The notes: a model not told the origin generated them from the sequence alone. Counted from the first letter of the stretch, positions 717 to 18,699 are shown. The stretch is DNA of 24,000 bases from Comamonadaceae bacterium (GCA_947372745.1 CANBUY010000003.1:1-24000); one strand, 5' to 3'. Translations and numbers: made by a program.

Positions 717-736
717 ATCTTAGATTAACAAACAGG

Positions 737-820
737 TAAACATAACCTTCAAACCAAACCATTTCAAAACACTTCAAATACCAAAATCAACTTCATAAAT
801 CAAACCACTAAATATTCATC
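737..820 (+). promoter_or_regulatory. G-free, C/A-rich 84-nt leader/promoter region upstream of the first curlin gene, with no Shine-Dalgarno sequence
   Basis: I found no G between G736 and the ATG at 821. TTCAAA occurs at 748, 763 and 773, and TTCATAAA at 792. The stretch is strikingly AT-rich compared with flanking DNA. The exact promoter could not be called. Confidence 0.3.
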
Positions 821-1285: not shown

Positions 1286-1300
1286 AACTTGACCCCAAGA

Positions 1301-1374
1301 AAAGAACAGGAATAAACCCCTACCTCCTTGCCTGAAATACGGGGCAATAGTTGAAACTGGGGTGTTCTTTTTTT
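1301..1374 (+). terminator. Possible leaky intrinsic terminator/attenuator between the curlin gene and csgE
   Basis: AAAGAACA (1301-1308) and CCCC (1317-1320) can pair with the contiguous GGGGTGTTCTTT (1359-1370), which is followed by a T7 run (1368-1374). The loop is long and the stem interrupted, so this is not a canonical terminator. Confidence 0.2.
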
Positions 1375-1380
1375 ATCGCC

Positions 1381-1812: not shown

Positions 1813-1854
1813 GGCCACCCGACGTAACCCATAACTTTTTAAAGAGACTTCTTT

Positions 1855-2301
1855 ATGTTCTATTTAAGGAATAACTTTCGCCCTGCTCTGGTTTGCCCAG
1901 CTATTTTGCTCACGCTAAGCCTTGGCGCAGGTGCCACTGAGATGGTCTACACCCCCATCAACCCCAGCTTTGGCGGCAACCCCAACAATGCACCCGGTTT
2001 GCTTTCTATAGCCCAAGTGCAAAACAGCATGCGGGCGCCGGTCGTTGTCTCTACCGTGGTGCCGCTGACGGCGGTTGAAAAATTCAGCGCCTCACTGAAT
2101 AGTTTGATTTTGAACCGCCTGGCCTCCGAAACCATGGCTACCCTGTTTGGCACCTCCTCCTTGCTTAAAGCGGGCACTTATACGGCGGGCGACTTTACGG
2201 TCACAATTTCGCAGCCGGACAGCAGCAGCAACCTGACCATCGTGACCAGCGACAAGGCTGGAAATTCATCGACTATTGAGATTGCACCAGGTACATTATG
2301 A
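1855..2301 (+). CDS. csgF: Curli assembly component CsgF
   Basis: A signal peptide is followed by YTPINPSFGGNPNNAPGLLSIAQVQNS, matching the E. coli CsgF N-terminus [27 protein letters not shown]. Its stop overlaps the csgG start (ATGA at 2298-2301). Confidence 0.85.
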   Translation: MFYLRNNFRPALVCPAILLTLSLGAGATEMVYTPINPSFGGNPNNAPGLLSIAQVQNSMRAPVVVSTVVPLTAVEKFSASLNSLILNRLASETMATLFGTSSLLKAGTYTAGDFTVTISQPDSSSNLTIVTSDKAGNSSTIEIAPGTL

Positions 2302-3368: not shown

Positions 3369-3384
3369 ATAGGTGAATCATTTT

Positions 3385-3960
3385 ATGTTTAATAAAAATT
3401 TCTATCTTTTCCTTTGGGCAGCACTCACCATGCCATCTTTGATGTGCTCTTCAGCGTTTGCTGCAGACATCAATCCTTTTTCAGATTTAACTGCCTTTAA
3501 CTACTTTGTTGACCAGGGGGGTCTAAAGAGCATTGCTCAAATTAACCAAGATGGACCGGATAACTTCAGTGAGATCAATCAAATTTCAGACCCGAGCAGC
3601 GCTTTAGGAAATTTCGCAGAGATCTTTCAAACAGGCAGTTCCAACGAAGCCCATGTAAAGCAAGATGGCCAAATTAACAAAGTGACCATCAATCAAACAG
3701 GTACAGACAACTACGCCATCACAGACCAGGCAGGCACAGCCAACTCTATTGTTTTAACGCAATCGGGCGATGGCAATACCTTTGCAGGCAACCAATACGG
3801 AACTTTTAACAGCATTGAGGTGATCCAGCCGGGGTCGGCACTTTCTACAATCACGATCAATGGCAACCATAATGCAGTTACACTTAATCAAAAGTTTCGC
3901 GGCGAATACAACATCACGCTTACAAGTGACAACATGATCTACACCGTGACCCAGCGCTAA
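3385..3960 (+). CDS. Curlin subunit (CsgA/CsgB family), about 191 aa, with more repeats than the first curlin
   Basis: The signal peptide is MFNKNFYLFLWAALTMPSLMCSSAFA-A. Multiple curlin half-repeats follow: IAQINQDGPDNFSEINQ, AEIFQTGSSNEAHVKQDGQINKVTINQTGTDNYAITDQAGTANSIVLTQSGDGNTFAGNQ. An SD-like AGGTGA (3371-3376) sits 8 nt before ATG 3385. The GTG at 3373 used by the track lies inside that SD and is less likely. Confidence 0.8.
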   Translation: MFNKNFYLFLWAALTMPSLMCSSAFAADINPFSDLTAFNYFVDQGGLKSIAQINQDGPDNFSEINQISDPSSALGNFAEIFQTGSSNEAHVKQDGQINKVTINQTGTDNYAITDQAGTANSIVLTQSGDGNTFAGNQYGTFNSIEVIQPGSALSTITINGNHNAVTLNQKFRGEYNITLTSDNMIYTVTQR

Positions 3961-3963
3961 GCC

Positions 3964-5604
3964 ATGTCACGCCTGCATCCCTACAAAAGTCTTCATCTAC
4001 TTTTTACCCTTCTCTCTACAGCCGCCCTCGCCGCGCCCGATGCGGGGACCTTGCTGCAGCAAATCCCCTCCCCCAATTTGCCAACGCCAGCAACCCCTGC
4101 CCAACCGCGGACAGTGGCGCCCGAAGAGCCCTTGGCACCTCAGGTTTCGGAGCGGTTTTTTGTAAAAACTATTCAGATAGCAGGCAACAAGAAAATATCG
4201 ACGGCCACCCTGCACGCCTTGGTCGCTGATGCTGAGGGAAAAAACCTGACGCTTGAAGAGCTTCAAACCGCAGTTTCCCGAATCAGCGACTACTACCAGC
4301 GCCAAGGCTACCCGCTGGCGCGCGCCATCATTCCGGCGCAAACCATCACGGATGGCTTGGTGAAGGTGCAAATCATTCTGGCTCGCTACGGCGAAATCAA
4401 AGTCAACAACACCAGTGGCGTCAGAGACCGCCTGATAGCCGCGCCACTGGCAGCCCTACAAACAGCACAAGACATAGAACAAGCCCCGCTTGACCGTGCT
4501 TTGTTGCTCATTTCAGACCTGCCTGGCATCTCGCTGAGCTCCAGCTTTACCAAGGGTGAAAGCGTCGACACGTCTGATTTTCAAATCAATGTTGCGGCCT
4601 CACCCCGTGCCTATGGTCAATTAGTGCTTGACGGCTATGGCAGCAGCTATACCGGGCGTGAACGCCTCAGTAGCACAGTGGTGTTCAACGACCCCCTAAA
4701 ACTCAGAAACAGCGACATCCTGAGCGTCAGCGTTTTAAGCTCGGGCCCAGGCATGCGCTACGGGCGCTTGTCTTACGAAGCTTTTTTAACCGGCGATGGG
4801 GTCCGCCTGGGCGGCTCCACGTCATCACTGCAATACCAGGTGCAGGGCAGCTTTGGCACTTCAGGCTCAGAGGGCTCTGCGCAAGTGAGTAGTCTTTGGG
4901 CCAAGCAAACTTTTCTCAGACAGCGCGACTTGAACCTGTATGGCCAACTCCAGTTAGACGCACTCACGCTTGCAGACACCACCTCAGAAGGCATCAACAA
5001 CCGGCGGCTGCAAAACTTCACCGTCACCCTGAATGGGGATGCCAGAGATGTACTGCTGACTGACAGAGAAAATTTCAGCACATGGAACTTGGGTGTCACA
5101 AGGGGGCGTGACTCCCGAGATTCCGAGGGTGAGTTTTTTAGGTTGAATGCCAACCTGAACCGCTTGCAGCGGCTGACAGCAACAGACAGTCTGTATTTCA
5201 ACTACACCCGGCAATGGGCCAACCGCCACCTCGACAGCTCACAACAAATGTCAGTCGCAGGCCCCAACAGCGTGCGCGCCTTTGACACGGGCGTCTCGCC
5301 CAGCGGCGATGGTGCCTCTATGCTCAACGCGGAATACCGGCGTGAACTGGGCACTATCCTGAGTGGCCAACTGACCGGGCTTGTTTTCTATGACAAAGGC
5401 GATGTCACCATCAACAAACATGGATCGGGCGAGAACAACCGTTTTACGCTAAATGGCCCTGGCCTGGGGCTGACCTGGGCAGGTCCTGATTCGTGGAGCG
5501 CCAAAGCTTTTGCGGCAACACCCACCGGAAAGGCAGCCACCGTATCGGGCGCAGGAACAGCAACAGCAACACGGCTATGGATGGAAATAGGTCGGGGGTT
5601 CTGA
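3964..5604 (+). CDS. ShlB/FhaC/HecB-family outer-membrane transporter (TpsB) of a two-partner secretion system
   Basis: A signal peptide (..LLSTAALA-AP) is followed by a POTRA-like segment, FFVKTIQIAGNKKISTATLHALV...LTLEELQTAVSRISDYYQRQGYPLARAIIPAQTITDGLVKVQIILARYGEI. A long beta-barrel-type region contains the family motif NSVRAFD (SVRG[FY]-like) and ends in an aromatic residue (..GRGF). The start lies 3 nt after the curlin stop. Confidence 0.8.
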   Translation: MSRLHPYKSLHLLFTLLSTAALAAPDAGTLLQQIPSPNLPTPATPAQPRTVAPEEPLAPQVSERFFVKTIQIAGNKKISTATLHALVADAEGKNLTLEELQTAVSRISDYYQRQGYPLARAIIPAQTITDGLVKVQIILARYGEIKVNNTSGVRDRLIAAPLAALQTAQDIEQAPLDRALLLISDLPGISLSSSFTKGESVDTSDFQINVAASPRAYGQLVLDGYGSSYTGRERLSSTVVFNDPLKLRNSDILSVSVLSSGPGMRYGRLSYEAFLTGDGVRLGGSTSSLQYQVQGSFGTSGSEGSAQVSSLWAKQTFLRQRDLNLYGQLQLDALTLADTTSEGINNRRLQNFTVTLNGDARDVLLTDRENFSTWNLGVTRGRDSRDSEGEFFRLNANLNRLQRLTATDSLYFNYTRQWANRHLDSSQQMSVAGPNSVRAFDTGVSPSGDGASMLNAEYRRELGTILSGQLTGLVFYDKGDVTINKHGSGENNRFTLNGPGLGLTWAGPDSWSAKAFAATPTGKAATVSGAGTATATRLWMEIGRGF

Positions 5605-5723
5605 CGCTATTTTCTGCTCGCCGAAATAGAACCTAAAAAAAGGGTTTTATCCAGCTTTAAATAAAATCACCTTGCCAGATGATGGGACTATGAACCCTAT
5701 CCCTCATCTCGGCTTTTTTGGAA

Positions 5724-5750
5724 CTATTGCATGCACAAGCCATGCAATAG
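5724..5750. promoter_or_regulatory. Perfect 10-bp inverted repeat (CTATTGCATG-N7-CATGCAATAG) in the 309-bp region upstream of the chemosensory operon; candidate operator or RNA hairpin
   Basis: Read directly from the sequence: arm 1 is 5724-5733, the loop is 5734-5740, and arm 2 is 5741-5750. A second, weaker IR, TTTGCAA-N7-TTGCAAA, lies at 5835-5855. Confidence 0.25.
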
Positions 5751-5913
5751 CCCGCCAAGCCTTGGTCAATGGAATACCAGGTTTGCGCTCTCCCACTGAC
5801 GGCTGCCTATTTTTGCTCAGCTTAAGTCCCTGCATTTGCAAAGCAACGTTGCAAACAACCCCGCAATCAAAACTCTTGAGCAAGATTGTCTCACCCACCA
5901 AAAGGAGCCCCAA

Positions 5914-7833
5914 ATGGCATTGATGAAGAAGTCTTCCAGCATGACAACACCCCTCTCGACAGAGGGTGCAAAGGCATCTTCTGCCTCAACGCGAGATGCA
6001 GAGGCACAGCGCAAAAAAGCGCGAACACTGGCCAAGCAGCAGCAAGCGGCAGAACGCATTGCTGCGGCGACAGCCCAACTCTCCTCCGGCATTGACAGCG
6101 CCTCCGCTGCTGCGGAGCAGATGAAGCGGGCTTCGGACCAAATCGCCACGGGTGCTGAGGAGGCTTCTGGCGCAGCACAGGTCTCACTGGCTGCTCTTAA
6201 AAATGTAGAGGGAGCGATTGCCCGTCAATTGCAAAATGCAGACATCAGCCAGACCAAGGCAGAAGCCACTCAAACGCTGGTCGCCCAAATCAGTGGCGAA
6301 GTCGCTACGTTGGTGGAAAACGTCAGTATTGCCGCCGAACGCCAGGGCGCGTCGGTCACCATGGTGATTGAACTGGAAAAACAAGCCGCCAACATTGGCG
6401 ATATCGTCAAAGCCGTCGCGCGCATTGCTGATCAAACCAATTTATTGGCCTTGAACGCCGCCATCGAAGCGGCGCGGGCCGGACAACATGGCAAGGGCTT
6501 TGCAGTGGTCGCCGATGAAGTCCGGACCTTGGCGGAAACATCCGAGAAAAGCGCCAAACAAATCCAAGACCTGGTTGGACAAATTCAGCAAGAAGTCAAA
6601 GTGATCGCTGAAGGCATGGGAACTTCTGTCGAGCGTGTTTTAAACGAGGTGGAGAATGGGAAAAAAATCACTCTGCAACTGGAGCAAATTCGAGTTGACG
6701 CGATTGAAATCGTACGGGGCGTGCGTGAAATTGCAGTAGGTGCCCAGCAGTCCACCAATGCGGCCAAACAGGCACTGCGCGGTTCAGAAGATATCGCTGC
6801 GGCCGCTGAAGAGCAGTCTGCGGCCGCTGAAGAATCCGCCAAAACCGTGGCACAACAAAGCCAGGCACTCGCAGAGAGCATGCAAGGCTCGCAAAGCTTG
6901 GCTGAGTTGTCAGAAGACCTGAAGAACTCCACCGATGTCGCCAAAAGCGCCGAAGAAGTGGCCTCGGCCGCTGAGCAGTTGTCGTCTGCCGTGCAGGAAA
7001 TCACACGCTCCGGCGCCCAAATCATGGCCGCTTTGGACCAAATTCTTAAAGGCGCGCAAGTGCAGTCTGCGGGCACTGAAGAAGTGGCAGCCGCCATTTC
7101 CCAGATCGAAAAGGGCACTGAAGTTGCCCAAAAACTTGGCAAGACCAGTGGCGAAAAAGTCACCGCCATCAAGAGTTTGCTAGACATCAACAAGATCAGC
7201 ATCGACAGCTTGGTCACCGGCATTTCATCGTCAGTGGATGCCTCACGCGACAGTCTAAAACAGATCAAAGAGCTTGAACTGGTGTCGCGCCGTATTGACA
7301 AAATTGTTGATGCCATCACCACCGTCTCCATTCAAACCAATATGCTGGCCGTGAATGGCTCGATTGAAGCCGCCCGTGCCGGTGAATTCGGCAAGGGTTT
7401 TGTGGTGGTCGCCACCGACATTCGCAACTTGGCCCACGATTCGGCTGAAAATGCCGACCGCATCAAAGACTTGGTGCGCTCGGTGCAAGACCAAATCGGC
7501 ATTGTCGGACGTGACCTCAATGAGATCATGGCCACTGCATCGGCAGCCGCTGAAAAGGCCAAATCGATTACTTCCAGTCTGATCGCCATTGAAACTGACA
7601 TTGGTGCGGTGGACGTGGGCACCCGCGAAATTTTGACGGCAGCCAACGAGATTGCTGGCGCTATTACCCAAGTTAAAGCGGGTGTGGACCAAATCTCTGC
7701 CGCTGCCCAGCAGGCCGATAAAGCGGCCAACGAAGCCGCCACAGTCGCCAAGCAGCAGTCACAAGCCTCGGAGCAGTTATCGGCCGCGGTTGAGGAAATC
7801 GCCTCGCTCGCTGACGAACTTCAAAGCGCATGA
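5914..7833 (+). CDS. Soluble methyl-accepting chemotaxis protein with two tandem signalling (MA) hairpin domains (DosM-like)
   Basis: I saw no hydrophobic TM segment. There are two conserved hairpin tips: ADQTNLLALNAAIEAARAGQHGKGFAVVADEVRTLAE (nt about 6427-6540) and SIQTNMLAVNGSIEAARAGEFGKGFVVVATDIRNLAH (nt about 7330-7435), about 300 aa apart. The rest is Ala/Glu/Gln-rich and coiled-coil-like. ATG 5914 is preceded by GGAG at 5904-5907. The track's TTG at 5836 has no RBS. Confidence 0.85.
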   Translation: MALMKKSSSMTTPLSTEGAKASSASTRDAEAQRKKARTLAKQQQAAERIAAATAQLSSGIDSASAAAEQMKRASDQIATGAEEASGAAQVSLAALKNVEGAIARQLQNADISQTKAEATQTLVAQISGEVATLVENVSIAAERQGASVTMVIELEKQAANIGDIVKAVARIADQTNLLALNAAIEAARAGQHGKGFAVVADEVRTLAETSEKSAKQIQDLVGQIQQEVKVIAEGMGTSVERVLNEVENGKKITLQLEQIRVDAIEIVRGVREIAVGAQQSTNAAKQALRGSEDIAAAAEEQSAAAEESAKTVAQQSQALAESMQGSQSLAELSEDLKNSTDVAKSAEEVASAAEQLSSAVQEITRSGAQIMAALDQILKGAQVQSAGTEEVAAAISQIEKGTEVAQKLGKTSGEKVTAIKSLLDINKISIDSLVTGISSSVDASRDSLKQIKELELVSRRIDKIVDAITTVSIQTNMLAVNGSIEAARAGEFGKGFVVVATDIRNLAHDSAENADRIKDLVRSVQDQIGIVGRDLNEIMATASAAAEKAKSITSSLIAIETDIGAVDVGTREILTAANEIAGAITQVKAGVDQISAAAQQADKAANEAATVAKQQSQASEQLSAAVEEIASLADELQSA

Positions 7834-7863
7834 TGCGCCAGTCCATGCACTTAGGAGAACGCT

Positions 7864-9447
7864 ATGACTACTGAAGCTCTGACAAGCTTGCAAGATTCGG
7901 CGCTTGACGCTGATACCACTGCGCGTGAGGCGGTGTCCGACATTCGCCAGTTTGTGACGTTTATCGTGGGCACTGAAGTGTTCGCGGTCGACATGGCCCC
8001 GGTGCAAGAGATCATCCGGGTCCCAGACGTCGTGAGGGTGCCCCTGGCCCCGCGTACGCTGGACGGACTGGCCAATCTGCGCGGCAAGGTGCTACCCATC
8101 GTCAGCTTGCGCCGCATATTCGGGTTTGATGAACGCGCTTATGACGATGCCACCCGCGCCGTTGTCATCGACCAAGGGCAGCCCCTGGGCTTCGTGGTGG
8201 ACCGAGTGGTGAGTGTGGTCAGCGTTGACCCGAAGCAAATCGAAGGTGCTGGCGCCATCAGCGCCACGGTCAATACGGATCTGGTCTCCGGCCTGCTCAA
8301 GGATGTAGGTGGCTACCCCATGATCATGGTGCTCGACTTCGGCAAACTTATCGCTGCCGAATTTGCGGGTGCACTGGCTTCAGCAGTTCAACACCATGCG
8401 GGATCCACATCAGATGCTGATCATTTGAAGCAAACTGAGGAACTCAAAGCCAGCGATGAATTGCACCTAGTGAGCTTTGAGGTGGCGCATCAGGAGTACG
8501 CCATCGTGATCGACGATGTGCAGGAAATTGTGCAGGTCCCTGAGTTGATCGTGCAAGTGCCGCACTCTGAGTCACATGTGCTGGGGGTCATGACCTTGCG
8601 CAACCGCTTGCTGCCACTGGTTTCTTTGCGTCGCATGTTTGGCCTGTCCAACCGTGCGGCCGATGAGAACAGCCGCATCGTGGTGGTGTCTCTGGGCGGC
8701 GCATCGGTAGGCGTGGTGATGGACAGCGTCAACGAGGTGTTGCGTGTAGCGCGCACTGATGTGGACGCCATGCCCGTGCTGCTGGCCAAAGAAGGGGACT
8801 TGTCTGAAATTTCGCAAATTTGTCGTCTCGACGGTGGAAAGCGATTGGTTTCAATTTTGTCGGTGGGCAATATGTTTCGCCACGCAGCCATCAAGGCTGC
8901 TTTAACTAGCGTGGACACCATGAACGATAAGCAAACCCAAAACACCTCAAGCGCCCAGGATGACGACAGGAGCGATGACGAGGAGCAAGTCGTTGTTTTC
9001 TTGTTGGGCAAAGAAGAGTTTGGCGTACCCATTGACAGCGTTCAAGAGATTGTGCGCGTCGCGGAGCAGCTGACTCATGTGCCCAAGGCACCGCCCGCCG
9101 TAGAAGGCGTGATTAATCTGCGGGGTGCGGTGTTGCCAGTGATGGACTTGCGTCGTCGCTTGGGTCTGACCCAGGTAGAACGAAGTGACCAGCAACGCAT
9201 CATGGTGTTTTTGGTGGATGGGGTGCGCACCGGCTTTATTGTGGACTCGGTGGTTGAAGTGCTGAAAATTCACAAGTCAACCATTGAGCCAGCGCCACGC
9301 TTGTCGGGTGAGCAAAACAAGTTACTGGCACGCATGGCGAACATTGAGAAGCAAAAACGCATGGTGCAACTGATTGAGCCGCGTCACCTGATCGAGCAGC
9401 AAGAGCGCGAAGACCTGGCCCAACTCGCGCAACACGCCAACGCTTAA
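7864..9447 (+). CDS. Scaffold protein with three tandem CheW domains
   Basis: Three copies of the CheW signature are present: FVTFIVGTEVFAVDMAPVQEIIRVP...LANLRGKVLPIVSLRRIFG, LVSFEVAHQEYAIVIDDVQEIVQVP...VMTLRNRLLPLVSLRRMFG, and VVVFLLGKEEFGVPIDSVQEIVRVA...VINLRGAVLPVMDLRRRLG. AGGAG at 7853-7857 precedes the ATG. Confidence 0.9.
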   Translation: MTTEALTSLQDSALDADTTAREAVSDIRQFVTFIVGTEVFAVDMAPVQEIIRVPDVVRVPLAPRTLDGLANLRGKVLPIVSLRRIFGFDERAYDDATRAVVIDQGQPLGFVVDRVVSVVSVDPKQIEGAGAISATVNTDLVSGLLKDVGGYPMIMVLDFGKLIAAEFAGALASAVQHHAGSTSDADHLKQTEELKASDELHLVSFEVAHQEYAIVIDDVQEIVQVPELIVQVPHSESHVLGVMTLRNRLLPLVSLRRMFGLSNRAADENSRIVVVSLGGASVGVVMDSVNEVLRVARTDVDAMPVLLAKEGDLSEISQICRLDGGKRLVSILSVGNMFRHAAIKAALTSVDTMNDKQTQNTSSAQDDDRSDDEEQVVVFLLGKEEFGVPIDSVQEIVRVAEQLTHVPKAPPAVEGVINLRGAVLPVMDLRRRLGLTQVERSDQQRIMVFLVDGVRTGFIVDSVVEVLKIHKSTIEPAPRLSGEQNKLLARMANIEKQKRMVQLIEPRHLIEQQEREDLAQLAQHANA

Positions 9448-9464
9448 AGACAAGACTGCGGACG

Positions 9465-10550
9465 ATGATCAAGCTGCTAATCGTTGATGACTCTGCGTTG
9501 ATGCGCCGACAGCTGTCGGCCATGTTCGACGCAGAGCCTGATTTTGAGATTCGTCTGGCGCGCAACGGGCGGGAGGCCGTGGAGGAAAACCGCACATTCA
9601 TGCCCGATGTTGTCACCCTGGACATCAATATGCCAGAGATGGACGGCCTGACCGCGCTGTCCCTCATCATGGGAGACCGACCAGTGCCGGTGGTGATGAT
9701 CTCATCGCTGACGGAGAAAGGGGCTTTGGCCACCTTTGAGGCCTTGAATCTGGGTGCCGTTGATTACGTGGTCAAACCAGGGGGCACCATCTCACTGGCC
9801 ATCGACACCATTCGGGCCACCGTGGTCAGCAAAGTGCGCACGGCGGCCAAAGCGCGGCTGAAAGCTTTTCGCCCAGCGGCGGTATCAAGCCCTGTGCCAC
9901 CGGTCGTCCGGCAGGTGGCGTCACCCACTACTGTGGCTGACACGAGTAGTGCGATGTCCAGTAAAGGCACGGGGCGCGAAGGTATCGTTTTGATCGGCGT
10001 CTCCACAGGCGGTCCCCGCACGCTGGAGTTGATATTGCCCAACCTACCGGCTCGATTTCCTTGGCCCATACTGGTCGCCCAACACATGCCGGCGAGCTTT
10101 ACACAGTCATTTGCACAGCGTATGAATGGCATGTGCGCTATGGAAGTGGTCGAGGCCAACCGTCCCATGACGCTTGAGGCCGGCACCATCTACATTGCCA
10201 AAGGCGGTGCCGATATGCAGGTGGTGCGGCGCGCAGGCAAGCTTAATGTGATCGCCAAGCCAGAAAGTGCAGACTTTTTGTGGCATCCGTCCGTTGAGCT
10301 ATTGGGGCAGTCGGTGCTTGAACATGTGCCCTGTTCCAACGTACTGGGCATCATGCTCACGGGCATGGGCAACGATGGGGCCGATGCCTTCACCGCCATC
10401 AAAAAAAGAGGCGGCCGCACCATAGCCGAATCTGAAGAGTCTTGTGTTGTGTTTGGCATGCCCTCCGAGCTGATCAGCCGGGGCGGCGCCACAGTGACCT
10501 TGCACGCAGAAAAAATTGCAGCCCAAGTCAAAACCTGGCTTGACTGCTGA
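9465..10550 (+). CDS. cheB: Protein-glutamate methylesterase/glutaminase CheB (REC + CheB catalytic domain)
   Basis: The N-terminal receiver is MIKLLIVDDSALMRR...DVVTLDINMPEMDGL...VVKP. The C-terminal methylesterase carries GVSTGGP, HMP and MLTGMGNDGA motifs. Confidence 0.9.
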   Translation: MIKLLIVDDSALMRRQLSAMFDAEPDFEIRLARNGREAVEENRTFMPDVVTLDINMPEMDGLTALSLIMGDRPVPVVMISSLTEKGALATFEALNLGAVDYVVKPGGTISLAIDTIRATVVSKVRTAAKARLKAFRPAAVSSPVPPVVRQVASPTTVADTSSAMSSKGTGREGIVLIGVSTGGPRTLELILPNLPARFPWPILVAQHMPASFTQSFAQRMNGMCAMEVVEANRPMTLEAGTIYIAKGGADMQVVRRAGKLNVIAKPESADFLWHPSVELLGQSVLEHVPCSNVLGIMLTGMGNDGADAFTAIKKRGGRTIAESEESCVVFGMPSELISRGGATVTLHAEKIAAQVKTWLDC

Positions 10551-10562
10551 AAAAGGAAAAAT

Positions 10563-11186
10563 ATGGCCTTCATTAAAAAAAATACCTCACCCTCTCGCGA
10601 CGTTGAAGAGCGCGTGCTTGTGCGCGACTGCGCGGGTTTGATTGAACAGTTGACCGACGCTGACCCGGCCATTCGGCGCTGGGCTGCACGCGATTTATTG
10701 AGCTATCCAGAAGCAACTGCCGCATTGGTCGCACGCATTCAAGCCGAAGGAGAACTCTCGGTGCGAGAGGTGATACTGACCACCCTGACCCGTCTCGGCG
10801 GCCCGATTGCAGTGGCCGGCTTGGTGGAGTGCTTGCGCAGCGAAGACGCCCAAGTGCGCAACGAAGCCATCATGGCCATGAAGGCGCTGCCCGACGAGGT
10901 AGCGCCCATCATGGGCGGCTTACTCCTGGATACCGATCCGGACGTGCGCATCATGGCGGTGAATATTCTTGAATCCTTGCGGCATCCCAAAGTAGAAGAA
11001 TGGCTGATAGCCGTCATTGACCGAGACCAGGTGGTCAACGTCTGCGGCACAGCCGTTGATTTGCTGGGGGAATTGGGCTCACCCGATTCGCATGAAGCCC
11101 TCGAACGCCTGAAGCTTCGGTATGCCGACGAGCCCTACATTCAGTTTGCCGCTGAACTGGCGTTGAAACGCACGGCAAAGGCATAA
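10563..11186 (+). CDS. HEAT-repeat (PBS-lyase-type) protein embedded between cheB and cheR
   Basis: Repeated helical units carry D-x-x-VR signatures: DPAIRRWAARDLL, EDAQVRNEAIMAMKAL, DPDVRIMAVNILESL and VNVCGTAVDLLGELG. An AGGA RBS lies at 10553-10556. Confidence 0.7.
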   Translation: MAFIKKNTSPSRDVEERVLVRDCAGLIEQLTDADPAIRRWAARDLLSYPEATAALVARIQAEGELSVREVILTTLTRLGGPIAVAGLVECLRSEDAQVRNEAIMAMKALPDEVAPIMGGLLLDTDPDVRIMAVNILESLRHPKVEEWLIAVIDRDQVVNVCGTAVDLLGELGSPDSHEALERLKLRYADEPYIQFAAELALKRTAKA

Positions 11187-11193
11187 AATTATT

Positions 11194-12036
11194 ATGGCAA
11201 AAATCATCATTAGCGAAGATGACTTCCTGAAGTTTCAGGAGTACTTTTACCGCAAGACGGGCATTCAGTTTGAGCACTCCAAACGCTACTTTGTTGACAA
11301 GCGCTTGGTAGAGCGTATTGAGGCCACCGGCAACGACAGCTTTCGGAGCTACTTTGCAATGCTCAGATTCCAGGCGTCAGGCACCGAGTTGCAGGCCTTG
11401 GTCAATTCGATGACCATCAATGAGACCTACTTTTTTCGGGAAGAGTACCAGTTTCATTGCTTGGTCAATTCCATCCTGCCAGAGATTGTGGCCAACAAGA
11501 AAAACGGCGATCCGATTCGCATCTGGGTCATCCCCTCTTCGTCGGGCGAAGAGCCTTACTCTATTGCCATGTGCTTGCTTGAGCGCTGGCCCGGCATCCA
11601 CAAGTGGGATGTAGAGATTATTTCCTCGGACATTGACACCAAAATTCTGGCACAAGCCCGCGCGGGTTTGTACTCAGAGCGTTCGGTCAAGCATGTTCCT
11701 CGGGCCTACATGTTGAAATACTTTCAACAAACGCCGCAGGGCTACCAACTCAACGAAGATTTGCGCAGTGCCGTTGAATTTACACACATCAACCTGATGG
11801 AGGCCTCCGAAGTGCGGCCCTACCGGAACTTTGATGTTATTTTTTGTCGCAACTTGCTCATCTACTTTGATGATGTTTCCCGCAAGCAGGCGGCCGAAAC
11901 TTTTTATGACGCCTTGCGTCCCGGTGGCTTCATTTGCCTTGGGCACTCAGAGTCCATGAGCCGTATTTCTGCACTCTACAAGATTCGAAAGTTTCCAGAG
12001 GCGATCGTTTATCAAAAACCTGGGGATGCCAAATGA
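11194..12036 (+). CDS. cheR: Chemotaxis protein methyltransferase CheR
   Basis: The N-terminal helical domain (FQEYFYRKTGIQF) and INETYFFRE are present. The SAM-binding motif is IRIWVIPSSSGEEPYSIAM, with FCRNLLIYFD also present. Confidence 0.9.
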   Translation: MAKIIISEDDFLKFQEYFYRKTGIQFEHSKRYFVDKRLVERIEATGNDSFRSYFAMLRFQASGTELQALVNSMTINETYFFREEYQFHCLVNSILPEIVANKKNGDPIRIWVIPSSSGEEPYSIAMCLLERWPGIHKWDVEIISSDIDTKILAQARAGLYSERSVKHVPRAYMLKYFQQTPQGYQLNEDLRSAVEFTHINLMEASEVRPYRNFDVIFCRNLLIYFDDVSRKQAAETFYDALRPGGFICLGHSESMSRISALYKIRKFPEAIVYQKPGDAK

Positions 12037-12407
12037 AACATATTTTGATTGTGGACGATGCTGCCACCGTGCGCATGTACCACCGCACCATTCTTGAAGC
12101 TGCAGGCTATACAGTCGACGAAGCCATTAACGGCATTGAGGCGCTTGAAAAAGCCCTCAATAAGCACTACGACTTGTACTTGGTGGATGTGAACATGCCT
12201 TTGCTGGATGGTTACTCGTTTGTGCGCGAGTTGCGCGGCCATGCCGACATACCTCAGGCACCCGCCGTGATGATCTCCACGGAGGCCAAGGCCAGCGATC
12301 AAACCAAGGCCTACCAAGCGGGCGCCAATCTCTACATCATCAAGCCTACCCGACCTGATGTCCTACTTAATAATGTTCGACTCCTGCTCGGGGAGAGCGG
12401 CATATGA
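12033..12407 (+). CDS. cheY: CheY-like single-domain response regulator
   Basis: MKHILIVDDAATVRM...DLYLVDVNMPLLDGY...ISTE...YIIKP carries the DD, D, T and K receiver residues. ATG 12033 overlaps the cheR stop (ATGA). The track's longer ORF from 11934 would overlap cheR by about 100 nt and adds non-receiver sequence. Confidence 0.85.
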   Translation: MKHILIVDDAATVRMYHRTILEAAGYTVDEAINGIEALEKALNKHYDLYLVDVNMPLLDGYSFVRELRGHADIPQAPAVMISTEAKASDQTKAYQAGANLYIIKPTRPDVLLNNVRLLLGESGI

Positions 12408-15166
12408 CAGCCTTACTCCAGCAGTTCATTTCTGAAGCAAAGGATTTTTTGGAAGGTATCAGTGAAAAGCTGATGCAACTTGAAAACACGCCCAGCGATG
12501 TGGACATGATGGGAGAACTGTTCCGACTAGTTCATACCCTCAAGGGAAATTGCGGATTGTTTGATTTCCCCGAAATGTCTCGGGTACTCCATGCCGCCGA
12601 AGACCTGATGGTCGTAGTGCGCGACGGGGATATCGCTTACACCCAAGCGTTGGCAGATCGTTTGCTGGACGCCATGGATTTTGTGAGCATGTTGCTCGAT
12701 GAAATTGAAGGCAGCGGAGCCAATAACGCGAGCCATGCGGGGGCTGCTGCAAAATTGGCGCAATCACTGCGCGAATTGATTGTGACCTCCAGCAACGGGG
12801 CCACACCTGACTCTGAGGATTTACCCCAGGCACCGACGAATACCGGCTTCATTCTCAGCCAACTTCCATTGAGCGATGTACCAGAGGCTTTGCGCATGGC
12901 CTGGTACCGCGAGGCCAGTACACAAACGCCTCTGCTGTGGATTACCTACACCCCGGAAGCCGAGTGTTTTTTCAAGGGTGAAGACCCTTTCCACCAAGCG
13001 CGCCAGACGCCAAACCTGGTTTGGCAAAAAGTGTCGGCGACAGAGCCCTGGCCACTCCTTGATCAGCTTGATGCCTACCGGAGCACCTTGTGCTTTCAAA
13101 TGGTGAGCACGGCAACACAGGCCGAACTTGAGGAACATTTTCGCTACGTCCCCGACCAAATCAGCCTGACCGTCATACCGCCCATCATGTGGGCTTTGCC
13201 GGTGGGTGATCAAAATGGGGGCCCGGTTTATGAGGATTTTGTCACTGATGCGCTCGGGCATTTGGTGCGGGGCGACCTGGCGAGCCTGAGCAGGGCCGCA
13301 CGCTCCATGCTGGAGCTTTCAGCCTCAGGGCTGTGGCTGGCCTCGGCTTTGCGCTGGTTGATCCTGATTATCGAGCAGGAACCCAACAACCACGCCTCAT
13401 TGCGCGCAGTGATTGAGTCCTTGCGAAGCTTTACAGCCCCCGTCCTCAATAGCCTGCACGAACTTACAGCAACTGCTGACGCTGACGTTGACGTTGACGA
13501 CCTTGTTGCCCCGGCCAGTACCAGCGCACAGACGGCCCCCATCATCACATCCGCGCCCATCGCCCCGGCCGCCAACCCGGTGGCTGATGCAGTGATCAAC
13601 GCACAGATGGCGGTGCTCAGTTTGTCGGATCAGGCGCATTGGTTGCCTGGGCGACTCAAGTCGGTGGCCAGCACCTTGTCAGCGTGCTACCGCAGTCTTG
13701 GGCGGGACGACCTGATGCCCTCTTTGGAAGCAGCCCTGGCCTTGGCCCTCGAATCTACCAACTCCGCGCCTTTGTTGGCTTGGCTAACGCGGCAAATAGC
13801 GTCAAGCCATGACGTGGATGTCGCTGAATTACCGCAAGCCCTGAGTCCACCACAGACGGCCGCTGTTGATCTGAGCGTCGCAGTGGACACACCGACCCTT
13901 GAGGTCATGCACGAAGAGGCGGTCACTGATCTGACCCCGGTTGTTGACAGTGATATTCGCTTTGGCCGGCGAGCTGAGGATGCGCCCGTCAGCACCAAAA
14001 CACTGAAGGTCGACCAAGAGAAAATTGACCGCCTGATGAACTTGATCGGCGAAATGGTCGTGGCTAAAAACGGCTTGCCTTACCTGGCCAGCCGTGCAGA
14101 GTCTGTGTTTGGGGTGCGTGAATTGTCGCGGGAAATCAAAACCCAATATTCCGTCATCAACCGCATTGCCGAAGAAATGCAAGACGCCATCATGCAGGTT
14201 CGCATGTTGCCGGTGTCATTTGTATTTCAGCGTTTTCCAAGATTGGTCCGCGACATTTCCCGAAAACTTGGCAAAGAGGTGAGCCTAGTGTTGGAGGGCG
14301 AAGACACCGAGGCCGATAAAAATATCATCGAGGCCTTGGCTGACCCCTTAATTCACATTGTTCGCAACAGCCTGGATCATGGCATTGAACAACCGGATGT
14401 TCGCCGTGCGGCGGGCAAGCCTGCTGAGGGAAAATTAATGATTCGCGCCTCTCAAGAGGCCGGCCGGGTCATCATCGACATCAGCGACGACGGCAAGGGA
14501 ATTGACCCCGCCGTGATCAAGCGAAAAGCTTACGACAAAGGCATTATTGACGAAGAGGCACTGGAACGCCTCACCGACCAAGAGGCGGTCAATCTGGTGT
14601 TTGCTGCAGGCTTCTCGACGGTCGATGTGGTGTCAGACCTGTCTGGTCGTGGTGTGGGTATGGATGTGGTTCGCTCGGCCGTAGAGCGGGTCAATGGCAC
14701 CGTCACCTTGCAAAGTACAGCGGGTCAGGGTACGCGTTTGCGACTCTCCTTGCCACTTTCCATGGCGGTCACCAATGTGATGATCATTGAGTCGGATGGG
14801 CAGATTTTTGGCGTGCCGATGGACATGGTCGTGGAGACCGTCAGGATTCCACGCTCGACCATTCACGCCATTAAAAATCACCAAACCGCTGTATTGCGCG
14901 GTCGAATCGTCCCCCTGCGTTCGCTCAATGAACTGCTCGCAACTGACAAGGCACAAGTCTCCAACGAGGAGGATGAGCTCGCCACACTGGTGATACGGAT
15001 GCAGGGCGAGCATGTGGGCATCGTGGTGGATGACTTCCGCGAAGTCGTAGACATCATTCTCAAACCCATGTCGGGAATTTTGGGGGGCTTGCCAGGCTAC
15101 ACCGGCTCGGCCCTTTTGGGCGATGGTTCGGTGCTGATGGTTCTGAATTTGAAGGAGTTGGTGTGA
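12404..15166 (+). CDS. cheA: Chemotaxis histidine kinase CheA (P1 Hpt, unassigned ~400-aa insert, P3, P4, P5)
   Basis: The Hpt motif is FRLVHTLKGNCGLF. The dimerisation region is KVDQEKIDRLMNLIGEMVVAKNGL. The ATPase boxes are HIVRNSLDHGIE, DISDDGKGID, GFST and GRGVGMDVV. The C-terminal CheW-like domain is IIESDGQIFGVPMDMVVETVRI...LRGRIVPLRSL. The start overlaps the cheY stop (ATGA at 12404-12407). Confidence 0.9.
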   Translation: MTALLQQFISEAKDFLEGISEKLMQLENTPSDVDMMGELFRLVHTLKGNCGLFDFPEMSRVLHAAEDLMVVVRDGDIAYTQALADRLLDAMDFVSMLLDEIEGSGANNASHAGAAAKLAQSLRELIVTSSNGATPDSEDLPQAPTNTGFILSQLPLSDVPEALRMAWYREASTQTPLLWITYTPEAECFFKGEDPFHQARQTPNLVWQKVSATEPWPLLDQLDAYRSTLCFQMVSTATQAELEEHFRYVPDQISLTVIPPIMWALPVGDQNGGPVYEDFVTDALGHLVRGDLASLSRAARSMLELSASGLWLASALRWLILIIEQEPNNHASLRAVIESLRSFTAPVLNSLHELTATADADVDVDDLVAPASTSAQTAPIITSAPIAPAANPVADAVINAQMAVLSLSDQAHWLPGRLKSVASTLSACYRSLGRDDLMPSLEAALALALESTNSAPLLAWLTRQIASSHDVDVAELPQALSPPQTAAVDLSVAVDTPTLEVMHEEAVTDLTPVVDSDIRFGRRAEDAPVSTKTLKVDQEKIDRLMNLIGEMVVAKNGLPYLASRAESVFGVRELSREIKTQYSVINRIAEEMQDAIMQVRMLPVSFVFQRFPRLVRDISRKLGKEVSLVLEGEDTEADKNIIEALADPLIHIVRNSLDHGIEQPDVRRAAGKPAEGKLMIRASQEAGRVIIDISDDGKGIDPAVIKRKAYDKGIIDEEALERLTDQEAVNLVFAAGFSTVDVVSDLSGRGVGMDVVRSAVERVNGTVTLQSTAGQGTRLRLSLPLSMAVTNVMIIESDGQIFGVPMDMVVETVRIPRSTIHAIKNHQTAVLRGRIVPLRSLNELLATDKAQVSNEEDELATLVIRMQGEHVGIVVDDFREVVDIILKPMSGILGGLPGYTGSALLGDGSVLMVLNLKELV

Positions 15167-15402
15167 TGGCAATCACGTACAAAAAAAATATGGCCGTGCT
15201 TGAAGGAGCCGTCAGTGTTGAAGACGCTGAAGACTTGCTGGCGTGGCTTCAAAAAACACCGAAAGCTCGGCTTGATTTTTCAGCCTGCACCCATCTTCAC
15301 GCTGCCAATCTACAGGTGCTGATGGCCGCCAGACTCCCTGTGGCTTCTTGGCCACATGACAATGATTTAAAAGCATGGCTGCATTCAGCCTTGCGTAATT
15401 GA
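15166..15402 (+). CDS. Small (78-79 aa) hypothetical protein, possibly a truncated STAS / anti-sigma-antagonist-like fold
   Basis: GAAGGAG at 15151-15157 precedes ATG 15166, which overlaps the cheA stop (TGATG). The pattern VLEGAVSVEDAEDLLAWL...ARLDFSACTHLHAANLQVLMAA resembles STAS-domain cores. This is weak, by-eye evidence only. Confidence 0.45.
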   Translation: MAITYKKNMAVLEGAVSVEDAEDLLAWLQKTPKARLDFSACTHLHAANLQVLMAARLPVASWPHDNDLKAWLHSALRN

Positions 15403-15415
15403 ATAAGGAATAAGC

Positions 15416-15790
15416 ATGGCTAAAACAATTATGGTCGTTGACGATTCAACCACCATGCTGATGAGTTTGAAGAACAGCCTGGAGATCGCAGGCTTCTGCG
15501 TCATAACAGCCAGTGATGGCGCTCTTGCCCTGGAGAAATTGAAAACTGGCCCCAGGCCGGATTTGATCATCACCGACATCAACATGCCCAATATGGGTGG
15601 CATTGAATTCATTGGTAAGGCACGCGCGCTTCCCGGCTTTCGGTTCATCCCGATTTTGGTCCTCACCACCGAGAGTATGCAAGCCAAACGTGATGAGGCT
15701 AAAAAACTGGGGGCTACCGGTTGGTTAGTCAAACCTGTCAGCGGCGCAGATTTAACCAAAATTATTAAACAGGTATTGCCCGGTGCATGA
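15416..15790 (+). CDS. cheY: Second CheY-like single-domain response regulator
   Basis: MAKTIMVVDDSTTMLMSL...DLIITDINMPNMGGIEF...ILVLTTE...GWLVKP is a receiver domain. An AAGGAA RBS lies at 15405-15410. Confidence 0.85.
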   Translation: MAKTIMVVDDSTTMLMSLKNSLEIAGFCVITASDGALALEKLKTGPRPDLIITDINMPNMGGIEFIGKARALPGFRFIPILVLTTESMQAKRDEAKKLGATGWLVKPVSGADLTKIIKQVLPGA

Positions 15791-17010
15791 TGGCTAACTT
15801 CAGCACCACGTCACCGCCCAAGATGGGCATCGCACCCGCTGCAAAATCAAAAATTGGGGCTTCGACACGCGCGAAATTAACTGTGTTCGCCGCACTGTTG
15901 ACGATAGGACTTCTCCGATTTTTTTCTGACGACCTGTTTCAGAGTACCGATGCATGGCTGGCTCGCCCTGGCGATTCTTTATTACTTTTAACAGGCCTCG
16001 CCCTGGCCTGCACGGCATTTTTTATACCTAAAGCGGCAAAGATAGCAACACACGCTAAGCCCTCAGACTCGCTTGATGAGATTTTGAAATCACATCTGGA
16101 TCTGGATGCGGAGATCAGAAATAAACTGATTGAAGTTGTTGCAGATACTGAAAACTCAGCCCTGAAAATCATCGGTGAAGTTCGCCAACTCTATGATTCA
16201 GCCAACACCTTGGTCGTCTACTTGGATGAGTCCCGGGAAACAGCCGATAACTTGGGGCAGGAAATAATCGAGAGCGTCCAGCACCTGAAAAAAGTCGAAG
16301 ATTTTGTAGTTCAACTCCCCGCACAGATGAAGAGCGACTTGGACAACGTCCAAATTATTTCTGAAGAAATCAATGCCTTGGCCGATCTGGTGGGTGCCGT
16401 CAAAGCCATCAGCATGCAGTCGCATTTATTGTCCATTAACGCCGCCATTGAAGGCAGCCGGGCTGGCCCGTCAGGTGCTTCGTTTCGGGTGGTGGCCGGT
16501 GAAATGAGGAAACTCGCCTCTAACTCAAATGAAGTGGCCAACCAGATCAGCCAAGGCTTGCTGCGCGCCAATGCAGTCGTCACTGGCGGAATTGCATCCA
16601 GCATTGCCAAGTCGTCTGAACGCCTGGAAGTGGTGTTGGCCGCTGCTGACTCGATCCATAAATTCCAGGAAAACTTCACCGGCATTACGGATTTTTACAA
16701 GTCTCGCTTTTCAGTGATCACCCAACACAACAACGATCTGGCACTCAACATTGCGGAAGTGTTGGGCCAAATTCAGTACCAGGATGTGGTCAGCCAAAGC
16801 ATCGACCGCATGATGGCCGCCATGAACCAGCGCAATGCCTTGCTGGAAGAAGCCAACACCGAGCTGCATCAGGGCTTTTTTGACCGCTACGCACTGCCCG
16901 TCAAGCTGAACTTCATCATGCAAACCTACCTGATTGAAGAAGAAAAACACAAGCACTCAGCCCGGCACGATGAAGCGGGTGCCCATGAACAAAAGATTGA
17001 ATTATTTTGA
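15787..17010 (+). CDS. Membrane-hairpin methyl-accepting chemotaxis-like protein with a divergent signalling tip
   Basis: Two hydrophobic segments (LTVFAALLTIGLLRFF and LLLLTGLALACTAFFIP) are separated by about 18 aa, so there is no periplasmic sensor domain. The MA-domain tip is AISMQSHLLSINAAIEGSRAGPSGASFRVVAGEMRKLA. The start overlaps the cheY stop (ATGA at 15787-15790). Confidence 0.75.
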   Translation: MMANFSTTSPPKMGIAPAAKSKIGASTRAKLTVFAALLTIGLLRFFSDDLFQSTDAWLARPGDSLLLLTGLALACTAFFIPKAAKIATHAKPSDSLDEILKSHLDLDAEIRNKLIEVVADTENSALKIIGEVRQLYDSANTLVVYLDESRETADNLGQEIIESVQHLKKVEDFVVQLPAQMKSDLDNVQIISEEINALADLVGAVKAISMQSHLLSINAAIEGSRAGPSGASFRVVAGEMRKLASNSNEVANQISQGLLRANAVVTGGIASSIAKSSERLEVVLAAADSIHKFQENFTGITDFYKSRFSVITQHNNDLALNIAEVLGQIQYQDVVSQSIDRMMAAMNQRNALLEEANTELHQGFFDRYALPVKLNFIMQTYLIEEEKHKHSARHDEAGAHEQKIELF

Positions 17011-17035
17011 TACGACTGACTGAAACGGGACTGGC

Positions 17036-17800
17036 ATGACGCATTTACAGGTTATCGCGGTCTGCAACAGAAAAGGGGGCGCTGGAAAGACCACAACGGC
17101 GGTCAATCTGGCGGTCGAACTGGCCGCGCTTGATTTTCGGGTTTTACTGATTGATCTCGACTCACAAGGCCACTGCGCTGTGGGATTAGGCGTCAAAGTG
17201 GCTGATGGCGATGCGACGTCACATGCCATATTTACCAACCCCCTGGCGACCATTTCTGACTCTGCGGTGGAAACGGCTTATGCCCATTTGTATCTATCCC
17301 CGGCTGATCAATTGTTTGAGCACGGCAGTGGTGTGCGCGATGAACTTCGCCTCCACCAAGCCTTGTCAGACCCGGCATTGGTTGCACGATTTGATGTCGT
17401 CATTCTGGACACCCCACCCTCGCTTGATTTTCTGTTGATCAATTCCCTTTGCGCCGCAAAATGGGTGCTGGTTCCTTATGTGCCGCACCCGCTTTCTTAC
17501 GAAGGCATTCGCCAGTTGATGCGGGTCATGTTTCGCGTCATGTCCAAACAAAATCCCGACTTGAAAATTCTGGGTTTTTTGCCCATGACGGCAGCAGCGC
17601 ATATTCGCCAGCACAGAACCGTGACCAGCGACGTCTCCCGGCAATTTGGCGCCCATCGGGTGCTCAGTGGCATTCGCAGCGACATCAAACTGGCCGAGGC
17701 CTTTGCCGTGGGCAAGCCTGTGCGGGCCTACGCCCCCAGCAGTCGGGGTGCGCAAGATTTTGCTGACTTGGGCGTTGCTGTGGCGCAGATGCTGGGTTAA
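17036..17800 (+). CDS. ParA/MinD-family P-loop ATPase (PpfA/ParC-like candidate array-positioning ATPase)
   Basis: The deviant Walker A is VCNRKGGAGKTTTAVNLA, Walker A' is LLIDLDSQG, and Walker B is VVILDTPP. It starts 25 nt downstream of the MCP gene on the same strand. Confidence 0.85.
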   Translation: MTHLQVIAVCNRKGGAGKTTTAVNLAVELAALDFRVLLIDLDSQGHCAVGLGVKVADGDATSHAIFTNPLATISDSAVETAYAHLYLSPADQLFEHGSGVRDELRLHQALSDPALVARFDVVILDTPPSLDFLLINSLCAAKWVLVPYVPHPLSYEGIRQLMRVMFRVMSKQNPDLKILGFLPMTAAAHIRQHRTVTSDVSRQFGAHRVLSGIRSDIKLAEAFAVGKPVRAYAPSSRGAQDFADLGVAVAQMLG

Positions 17801-18546
17801 CGCTCGGCCAACTGCGCCTTGAGTGCGGCATTCTCCAACGTAAGCTCGGTGATCGTTTGCTTGAGCCGCGCAATCACCCCCTCTGGGGACTCGGGCTCGG
17901 TGCGGGCCACTGCCCGTGTTTCACGAACCTGTCGTGCCGCCTGCTGCAGCTCTTTTTTGCCACCCGCTGCAGCCGCCACTTGCGCCTCAAGTGGCAATGA
18001 GGCCACGGTAGCGGCGGCATTGATGGAGATAGCGCCCGATTTGATGGCGGCGACTAACTCGGGCGCCGCAGATTTTTGAATCTTTTCAATCTGGGTGATG
18101 GTGTTGCTGCTGATTCTTGCCGACTTTGCCAGCGCCTCGCGGCTCGTCAACGACTCGGAGACCTGAGGCACTGCGGGCGCATCCTCAGTGGACATCACCG
18201 CCTCATCCCTTGGCACGGATCGGCGCGTATTCAAAATGTCTTTTTTACGCAAGGCCAGCACGCCGCGCTGAAAATCAGACACGCTGCGCCGTCCCAGATG
18301 CTGGTCGATCATCCACAGATGGACGTCGTCCATCGATTTGAAGCTGCTGTTTTGCAAGGTATTGAACGCAATACCGTGTTTTTGGCATATTCCGTAACGG
18401 TTGTGCCCATCGACCAGCACCTCCCCCCAAAGTACCAGGGCATCGCGGCACCCCTCAGTCAGCAGACTGTGTTCCAGCGCAGCGTGTTCTTCCGGGGTCA
18501 GCGGGTCGATATAGGCGAGAAGTTCTTCGTTGACCGTGATATTCAT
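17797..18546 (-). CDS. Orphan ParB/sulfiredoxin-fold N-terminal domain DNA-binding protein
   Basis: LLTEGCRDALVLWGEVLVDGHNRYGICQKHGI resembles the ParB box (DGHHR-like), followed by HLGRRSVSDFQRGVLA. An HTH-like segment, SARISSNTITQIEKIQKSAAPELVAAIKSGAISINAA, and a C-terminal coiled coil follow. The opposite-strand ORFs here translate to low-quality sequence. Confidence 0.65.
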   Translation of the reverse strand: MNITVNEELLAYIDPLTPEEHAALEHSLLTEGCRDALVLWGEVLVDGHNRYGICQKHGIAFNTLQNSSFKSMDDVHLWMIDQHLGRRSVSDFQRGVLALRKKDILNTRRSVPRDEAVMSTEDAPAVPQVSESLTSREALAKSARISSNTITQIEKIQKSAAPELVAAIKSGAISINAAATVASLPLEAQVAAAAGGKKELQQAARQVRETRAVARTEPESPEGVIARLKQTITELTLENAALKAQLAER

Positions 18547-18699
18547 GGGTTGGGGCAGTTTGGTAATGACAGGGGGGCCATTCTAGGAGACCGGGTCACC
18601 TTCCTCTGATTTTGCGCAGAGTGGTGTTGAATCAATTAACTTATGCTGGGCATCCATGATGTCCCACACCTCGTTTTACTTTGTTGCCCCGATCAAAGC

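Follow-up and report, generated by a model that had tools for sequence, protein, structure and literature searches.

Gene Organization of the Chemosensory Operon

A 24,000-nt stretch of DNA from a Comamonadaceae bacterium (GCA_947372745.1, contig CANBUY010000003.1, positions 1–24000), referred to here as the window, carries on its plus strand a run of eleven genes (positions 5914–17800) that encodes a chemosensory cluster and ends in the gene of a ParA-family ATPase. The genes are arranged in the order dosM, cheW3, cheB, a gene for a HEAT-repeat protein, cheR, cheY, cheA, a gene for a 78-residue protein, a second cheY, mcp and parA. The cluster is assigned below to the F9 class of chemosensory systems, and the probable role of ParA in positioning its array is the main subject of this analysis.

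The Pfam matches of the operon genes were strong and their assignment was unambiguous, with only the 78-codon open reading frame (ORF) falling below the cut-off. The first gene, dosM (5914–7833), encodes a soluble receptor in which two MCP signalling domains stand in tandem (Pfam MCPsignal in two stretches, E-value 7e-62), and cheW3 (7864–9447) encodes three concatenated CheW domains (Pfam CheW in three stretches, E-value 8e-97). They are followed by cheB (9465–10550), comprising a receiver domain and a methylesterase, by the gene of the HEAT-repeat protein (10563–11186; Pfam HEAT_2, E-value 1e-24), by the methyltransferase gene cheR (11194–12036) and by the first cheY (12033–12407). The cheA gene (12404–15166), with 920 codons, precedes the gene of the 78-residue protein (15166–15402), for which a minimal STAS fold is predicted from AlphaFold2 and Foldseek. 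The second cheY (15416–15790), like the first, and the downstream mcp (15787–17010), whose product has 407 residues, were also identified by Pfam. Finally, parA (17036–17800) matches Pfam AAA_31 (E-value 6e-35), as well as the CbiA and ParA models.

When the junctions were read base by base, the stop/start overlap ATGA was found at 12033, where the start of the first cheY overlaps the cheR stop codon, at 12404 and at 15787, while the junction between cheA and the 78-residue gene reads GTGATG (15163–15168). The remaining gaps in the operon measure 7–30 nt, with 25 nt between mcp and parA. This tight packing supports a single operon of eleven genes and is the main argument for it, since a scan of the window for promoter-like and terminator-like sites gave no excess over shuffled sequence. 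The gene order, the coordinates and the ATGA and TGATG junctions had been given in an earlier note, made by a model from the sequence, and all of them are confirmed by the Pfam scan and by the base-by-base reading; the single operon proposed in that note is supported. No Rfam families or tRNAs were found in the window.

Membership of the F9 Class

In a comparative study of chemosensory systems, complete F9 clusters were found in just 64 of 2,781 species, and two architectures were described as unique to the class, namely a DosM with two signalling domains and a CheW with three CheW domains. The V. cholerae F9 cluster is given in supplementary table S6 of that study as [DosM W3 B. R Y A. Y M]. 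According to a review of the V. cholerae systems, DosM is VC1403, the triple CheW is VC1402, CheA is VC1397 and the flanking receptor is VC1394, an MCP described as bound to the membrane and devoid of a sensory domain. Published accounts place F9 arrays purely in the cytoplasm, and neither the output nor the cell biology of F9 systems has so far been worked out, even in V. cholerae. A 2026 preprint adds that CheA-F9 carries an extra region.

Both signature architectures are present in the window, where the NCBIfam MCP models also match DosM twice, and the window order, M-W-B-x-R-Y-A-x-Y-M, is identical to the published [DosMW3B.RYA.YM]. Over its full length, the window DosM shares 63% identity with Sphaerotilus WP_149505510.1, an F9 DosM in the published list, and it also has matches in loci of the same build in Azospirillum, Novosphingobium and Methylobacterium. 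The extra CheA region described for CheA-F9 is present ahead of the dimerisation domain: between the Hpt domain (residues 4–92) and the dimerisation domain (532–599) lies a conserved stretch of about 430 residues, with many invariant columns in an alignment of 16 homologues. The closest CheA relatives come from a freshwater metagenome-assembled genome (MAG) labelled 'uncultured beta proteobacterium' (92%) and from Undibacterium, Janthinobacterium and Actimicrobium (about 70%). By these relatives, the window would most likely belong to an uncultured member of the Burkholderiales close to Oxalobacteraceae.

Judged by its protein architectures, its gene order and the homology of its DosM, the operon qualifies as an F9-class chemosensory cluster. 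The same order as in V. cholerae cluster I, which the earlier note had proposed, is thus borne out by the published order and by both signature architectures. Drawn from the published order and descriptions, the likeness to cluster I (VC1394–VC1403) covers the gene order, the receptor with the double signalling domain, the triple CheW and a terminal MCP that is membrane-bound without a sensory domain. The window cluster ends in ParA, whereas the V. cholerae descriptions consulted mention a ParA protein for cluster II (ParC) only, and the additional PAS receptors VC1404–VC1406 have no counterpart in the window. By eye only, the second CheY (15416–15790) bears a resemblance to sequences such as Rhodospirillum rubrum 83593665 that Hamer et al. 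2010 list in their 'CheY6-like' supplementary set.

For comparison, 80 related loci were collected with CheA proteins 53–92% identical to that of the window, taking one genome per species and keeping 10 kb on each side, and their gene content was determined by tblastn with all the window proteins. The loci belong to Burkholderiales, Rhodocyclales, Gallionellaceae, Methylococcales, Chromatiaceae, Geobacterales/Desulfuromonadales and one Holophagaceae MAG. The core gene order is kept in every locus that extends far enough to reveal it. Two loci, L005 and L009, stem from MAG bins named 'Candidatus Paceibacteria' and 'Bradyrhizobium sp.'; both are about 68% identical to the window CheA and Oxalobacteraceae-like, and their contigs were probably mis-binned.

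The HEAT-Repeat Protein and the 78-Residue Protein

The HEAT-repeat protein corresponds to the first 'dot' of the F9 order. Every locus of sufficient length has kept it, and it is annotated as a HEAT-repeat protein in RefSeq F9 loci.

The second 'dot' is the 78-residue protein, whose true start, according to the alignment, is the ATG at 15166. Its gene was found in all 80 related loci, which indicates that the ORF is a real gene. AlphaFold2 gave a model with a pLDDT (predicted local distance difference test) of 89.7 when supplied with a 55-sequence alignment; a structure predicted from the single sequence, with a pLDDT of 58, was of too low a quality to be used. The best Foldseek matches to the model are RsbV, anti-sigma antagonists of the SpoIIAA type, MlaB and SLC26 STAS domains (E-value 5e-4, TM-score about 0.6). 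At the level of sequence profiles, the protein scored 18.4 bits against Pfam STAS_2, under the cut-off of 29.2; the comparison with the RsbS profile by hhalign gave no match (probability 0.1%), and a profile search of PDB sequences found nothing. Matches to NCBIfam metallo-beta-lactamase models lay far under the cut-off and were disregarded.

The protein is described here as a predicted minimal STAS-fold protein. On one reading of the alignment, the position expected to hold the STAS phosphoserine appears to be Ala or Pro. Cys41 is invariant, and His43 and His45 nearly so, within the motif CTHLHxANLQVLMA; speculatively, these residues could form a metal or redox site.

The ParA Protein

The product of the last gene has a Soj-type deviant Walker A motif, KGGAGKT, with Lys13 and Lys18, and these Walker A lysines are invariant across 42 ParA orthologues. 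Two basic residues conserved in the same 42 proteins, R214 and K218, align with the RNVR of Soj. The nearest solved structure is that of Soj from Thermus thermophilus (PDB 1wcv, E-value 2.5e-31). With its ATPase motifs intact, ParA appears functional, and the conserved basic residues at the Soj RNVR positions may point to DNA binding.

The deviant Walker A motif and the basic residues at the aligned positions are common to the window ParA and T. thermophilus Soj/ParA (PDB 1wcv and 2bek). However, Soj segregates chromosomes together with Spo0J/ParB and parS, whereas the window operon has no cognate ParB. Immediately downstream, on the minus strand, lies an ORF of 249 codons (17797–18546) that resembles the N-terminal domain of ParB, contains a DGHNRY motif and has no Pfam match. 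Its stop codon overlaps that of parA. It could accordingly be supposed that ParA and this convergent ORF are left over from the partition machinery of a plasmid or mobile element and came to lie beside the che operon by chance, the more so as the ORF is 69% identical to a 'plasmid replication/partition related protein' of a Mitsuaria plasmid and similar to proteins with the ParB N-terminal domain. Such an origin is extremely improbable. The two genes are convergent and do not form a parAB operon, no ParA accompanies the homologue in Mitsuaria, and the closest relative of the window (L001) is the sole locus among the 80 to carry the ORF, whereas ParA is present in most of them and co-varies with CheA. 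As a partition pair, ParA and the ParB-like ORF were consequently rejected: they lie on opposite strands, the ORF is missing from 79 of the 80 loci, and in Mitsuaria it stands alone.

Linkage of ParA to F9 Loci

A same-strand ParA, 49–96% identical to that of the window, lies downstream of CheA in 30 of the 40 loci that have the full 10 kb on that side, and in 48 of the 60 that have at least 3.5 kb. In the 56 ParA-positive loci, the gene follows the MCP immediately in 29 cases and a gene encoding only a receiver (REC) domain in 22; elsewhere, it lies between the STAS-like gene and the CheY/MCP genes. Homologues of ParA and CheA taken from the protein database are repeatedly found on equally long contigs, and two ParA homologues chosen regardless of their context (66–68% identical) both proved to lie within F9 loci.

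The pairwise distances of ParA and CheA are correlated (r = 0.76), a value reached by none of 999 permutations, and this correlation falls inside the range observed between one che gene and another (0.43–0.87). Outside the 80 loci, RefSeq annotates a 'ParA family protein' in plasmid-borne F9 loci of Methylosinus trichosporium OB3b (plasmid pOB3b_01; 48% identity with the window protein) and of Methylobacterium currus (41% identity). These two loci share the same core genes and ParA with the window. They differ in that ParA stands directly after the 78-residue gene, before the CheY–MCP pair or replacing it, whereas in the window it is the last gene. To our knowledge, nothing has been published on these two loci.

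Judged from these comparisons, ParA is a conserved and co-inherited accessory of this F9 branch. The earlier note had staked its segregation idea on the co-occurrence of ParA with the operon in related genomes, and this held in both sets of loci and in the two cultured alphaproteobacteria. The note had also presented ParA as something additional to this operon; its presence at the operon end stands, but it is not peculiar to this operon, being common in this F9 branch.

A Probable Role in Array Positioning

A precedent for a ParA-family ATPase dedicated to a chemosensory array is found in Rhodobacter sphaeroides, where PpfA, encoded beside tlpT in CheOp3, is a chromosome-binding protein that uses the TlpT N-terminus to position and segregate the cytoplasmic cluster. 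The earlier note had described this precedent accurately. In a previous survey, ppfA homologues were reported within the che operons of 77 of 206 species, and partitioning of cytoplasmic clusters was proposed to be common. As in the window, CheOp3 has a ParA-family ATPase gene beside a receptor gene and no parB in the operon; it also builds a cytoplasmic array, as the window system would. However, CheOp3 belongs to a different chemosensory system, without DosM and without a triple CheW.

By analogy with PpfA, the window ParA probably positions the cytoplasmic F9 array, a role that is held with moderate confidence. A nucleoid-based positioning ATPase would suit the F9 class, since its array is purely cytoplasmic. 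As expected from its homology to cluster I of V. cholerae, the system would build a double-layered cytoplasmic array from DosM, the triple CheW and CheA, with CheB and CheR adapting it and the two CheY proteins serving as phosphorylation targets. Dimers of ATP-bound ParA would coat the nucleoid, and some component of the array would stimulate the ATPase of ParA; the resulting ParA gradient would hold the array in place and divide it between the daughter cells. The formation of the array, DNA binding by ParA, the positioning role and the identity of the activating partner are all inferred.

A chemosensory array can also be tied to the cell pole. In the F6 system of Vibrio, ParC, a ParA-like ATPase of a che cluster that resembles the window ParA in being dedicated to a chemosensory array, works with ParP, and the system needs both ParP and a polar anchor. 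That the F9 ParA anchors its array at the pole in this manner, rather than over the nucleoid, is very unlikely. The operon ORFs, all of which are accounted for, include no ParP-like gene, that is, no CheW-like protein with a ParC-binding domain. In addition, the nearest solved relatives of ParA are the DNA-binding Soj proteins, and the purely cytoplasmic nature described for F9 arrays also speaks against a polar anchor.

Several points weigh against the positioning of the array by ParA. The likeness to PpfA is drawn from gene context and published description. The 80 loci were gathered as the closest relatives of a single CheA, many of them on MAG contigs; they are non-independent samples and include no Vibrio. 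Within this set, ParA is absent from 10 of the 40 loci with 10 kb downstream, the absence being scored at the locus only, so that a copy elsewhere in the genome is possible, and the F9 loci of Azospirillum brasilense, Eleftheria terrae and Sphaerotilus also lack it. From this incomplete occurrence, it follows that ParA is dispensable for F9 as such. The remaining points concern the candidate partners in the array and the genes next to ParA.

Partners that activate ParA/MinD ATPases typically do so with a short basic N-terminal stretch. Such a stretch, the Lys/Arg-rich peptide PPKMGIAPAAKSKIGASTRAK, is present at the N-terminus of the downstream MCP and had been proposed in the earlier note as the ParA partner. 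The MCP comprises a short N-terminal tail, hydrophobic helices at about residues 31–46 and 64–81 and a cytoplasmic signalling domain, with no sensory domain, and its orthologues have the same topology and variable N-termini. The basic peptide is found only in the window and, already diverged, in the closest relative, and the MCP orthologues that directly precede ParA carry unrelated and mostly non-basic tails, such as 'MTSAEIPFPSPGALF' and 'MKIDLNLPGKILD'. The proposal is not borne out: the tail is unconserved even beside ParA, and the receptor is membrane-anchored, in contrast to the soluble TlpT of R. sphaeroides. The N-terminus of the downstream MCP is thus rejected as a candidate and is probably not the partner.

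A second candidate is the N-terminus of DosM, which in the window reads MALMKK, followed by a Ser/Thr/Ala linker and then by the conserved segment 'QRKKARTLAKQQQAAERIAAAT'. Its conservation among the DosM orthologues is striking, with MAL[VI]KK, a variable Ser/Thr/Ala linker and again 'QRKKARTLAKQQQAAERIAAAT'. The N-terminus of DosM would be a better partner candidate than the MCP tail, were it tied to ParA. However, MAL[VI]KK is equally kept in loci without ParA, including that of Azospirillum, and for this reason it cannot be tied to ParA; as a ParA-specific partner, the MALVKK N-terminus is unsupported.

Genes Recurrently Found beside ParA

The other point concerns the genes adjacent to ParA. 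In the 22 loci mentioned above, ParA is coupled to the REC-only gene, which ends at the ParA start or within a few bases of it, and a kinase or GGDEF-EAL gene is often next. Directly after ParA comes a PAS histidine kinase gene in about 10 of 36 loci, several loci have a GGDEF-EAL gene there, and in about nine loci a stressosome-type block with an RsbU_N kinase stands between the MCP and the REC–ParA pair. Accordingly, ParA might serve this downstream module of REC-only regulator, PAS/RsbU_N histidine kinases, stressosome-type block and GGDEF-EAL enzymes instead of the array, either by localising or regulating it or as an output controlled by phosphorylation, and the window would then retain only ParA. 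This alternative is considered unlikely, as ParA comes right after the MCP, without any such module, in 29 loci and in the window, and in Methylosinus and Methylobacterium it lies inside the che run, directly after the STAS-like gene. Only the F9 core accompanies ParA throughout. Positioning of the array by ParA is still preferred.

From the way they are placed, the REC-only gene and ParA are suggested to be translationally coupled, and ParA might be under phospho-control. For example, the REC-only gene occupies 14995–15369 in L044, where ParA extends over 15366–16136, and 15766–16152 in L026. Across the 22 loci, the REC-only genes are 53–78% identical to the L026 query, and the L026 copy is about 30–37% identical to the genes of the second CheY.

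The stressosome-type block occurs in L007, L008, L009, L014, L025, L026, L031, L042, L050 and L072 (for instance, L026:12061–15752) and is not present in the window; it usually sits between the terminal MCP and the REC–ParA pair. Its genes encode an RsbR-like protein (RsbRD_N-STAS), an RsbS-like STAS protein, two small kinases of the HATPase_c_2 type, a SpoIIE/PP2C phosphatase and a histidine kinase built as RsbU_N-HisKA-HATPase. GGDEF-EAL genes directly after ParA, some of them with starts overlapping the ParA end, were observed at L026:17074–19350, L085:8779–10191, L087:4379–6187 and L054:15406–17241.

Flanking Genes and the Output of the System

Upstream of the operon, positions 15–5604 hold a run of genes for a YDG-domain protein fragment, a curlin-repeat protein, CsgE, CsgF, CsgG, a second curlin-repeat protein and a ShlB-type transporter of two-partner secretion (TPS), an unusual combination of two secretion systems, curli-type and TPS, within one gene run. 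The adjoining of these genes and the absence of flagellar genes from the window, both stated in the earlier note, were confirmed.

A terminator-like hairpin (5591–5605) lies at the end of the TPS transporter gene and is followed by a 309-nt leader on the plus strand (5605–5913), the probable promoter region of the operon. Given this gap and the hairpin, the che genes are probably transcribed apart from the curli/TPS genes. The leader is 95% identical to that of the closest relative and has no Rfam match. It contains a perfect 8-bp inverted repeat at 5726–5748, ATTGCATG-N7-CATGCAAT, from which L001 differs by two substitutions, and a direct repeat, TTGCAA-N8-TTGCAA, at 5836–5856; both repeats could be binding sites for a regulator.

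The position of the curli/TPS genes, directly upstream and on the same strand, had been taken in the earlier note as a clue to an output in surface attachment or matrix. Cyclic di-GMP (c-di-GMP) often controls matrix production, and the GGDEF-EAL proteins that follow the F9–ParA unit in some relatives provide a distant hint at best in the same direction. Nevertheless, it is highly doubtful that the system controls curli or adhesin production. Homologues of CsgG, ShlB and curlin stand beside the operon in only one of the 80 loci, that of the closest relative L001, the gap and the hairpin separate the two gene sets, and no GGDEF or EAL gene is present in the window. With the linkage recurring only in L001, the output suggested in the note is not supported.

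Downstream of the ParB-like ORF, the window contains two tandem P-type cation ATPase genes, at 18643–21186 and 21156–23714, which overlap by 31 nt.

Implications for F9 Chemosensory Systems

Taken alone, the window holds an ordinary, well-formed F9 operon. The F9 class, the presence of ParA genes in che operons and the ParA-driven positioning of a cytoplasmic array were already known. The additions made here are modest and consist of ParA in F9 loci, the predicted STAS fold of the small protein and the recurrent stressosome, kinase and GGDEF-EAL neighbours, none of which is mentioned in the F9 literature searched.

Since ParA is frequent, co-inherited and present in culturable carriers, the placement and inheritance of a membrane-free receptor array are directly testable. 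Culturable carriers of ParA include Methylosinus trichosporium OB3b, Methylobacter tundripaludum, Thiocystis and Polaromonas.

A broader and much more tentative proposal, for which confidence is low, is that most F9 arrays outside Vibrio have a dedicated nucleoid-riding ParA, and that the F9 system forms a positioned body in the cytoplasm which senses stress and signals into a phosphorelay and c-di-GMP, not to the flagellar motor. If this were true, the V. cholerae model system would be lacking a common F9 component. In many lineages, ParA would be translationally coupled to its own REC protein, and the F9–ParA unit would be recurrently connected with partner-switching genes of the stressosome type, with PAS kinases and with GGDEF-EAL enzymes, beside a universal protein of predicted STAS fold. 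Apart from this proposal, the REC-only gene, the stressosome block, the kinases, the GGDEF-EAL proteins and the universal protein of predicted STAS fold are concrete candidates for the missing output of F9.

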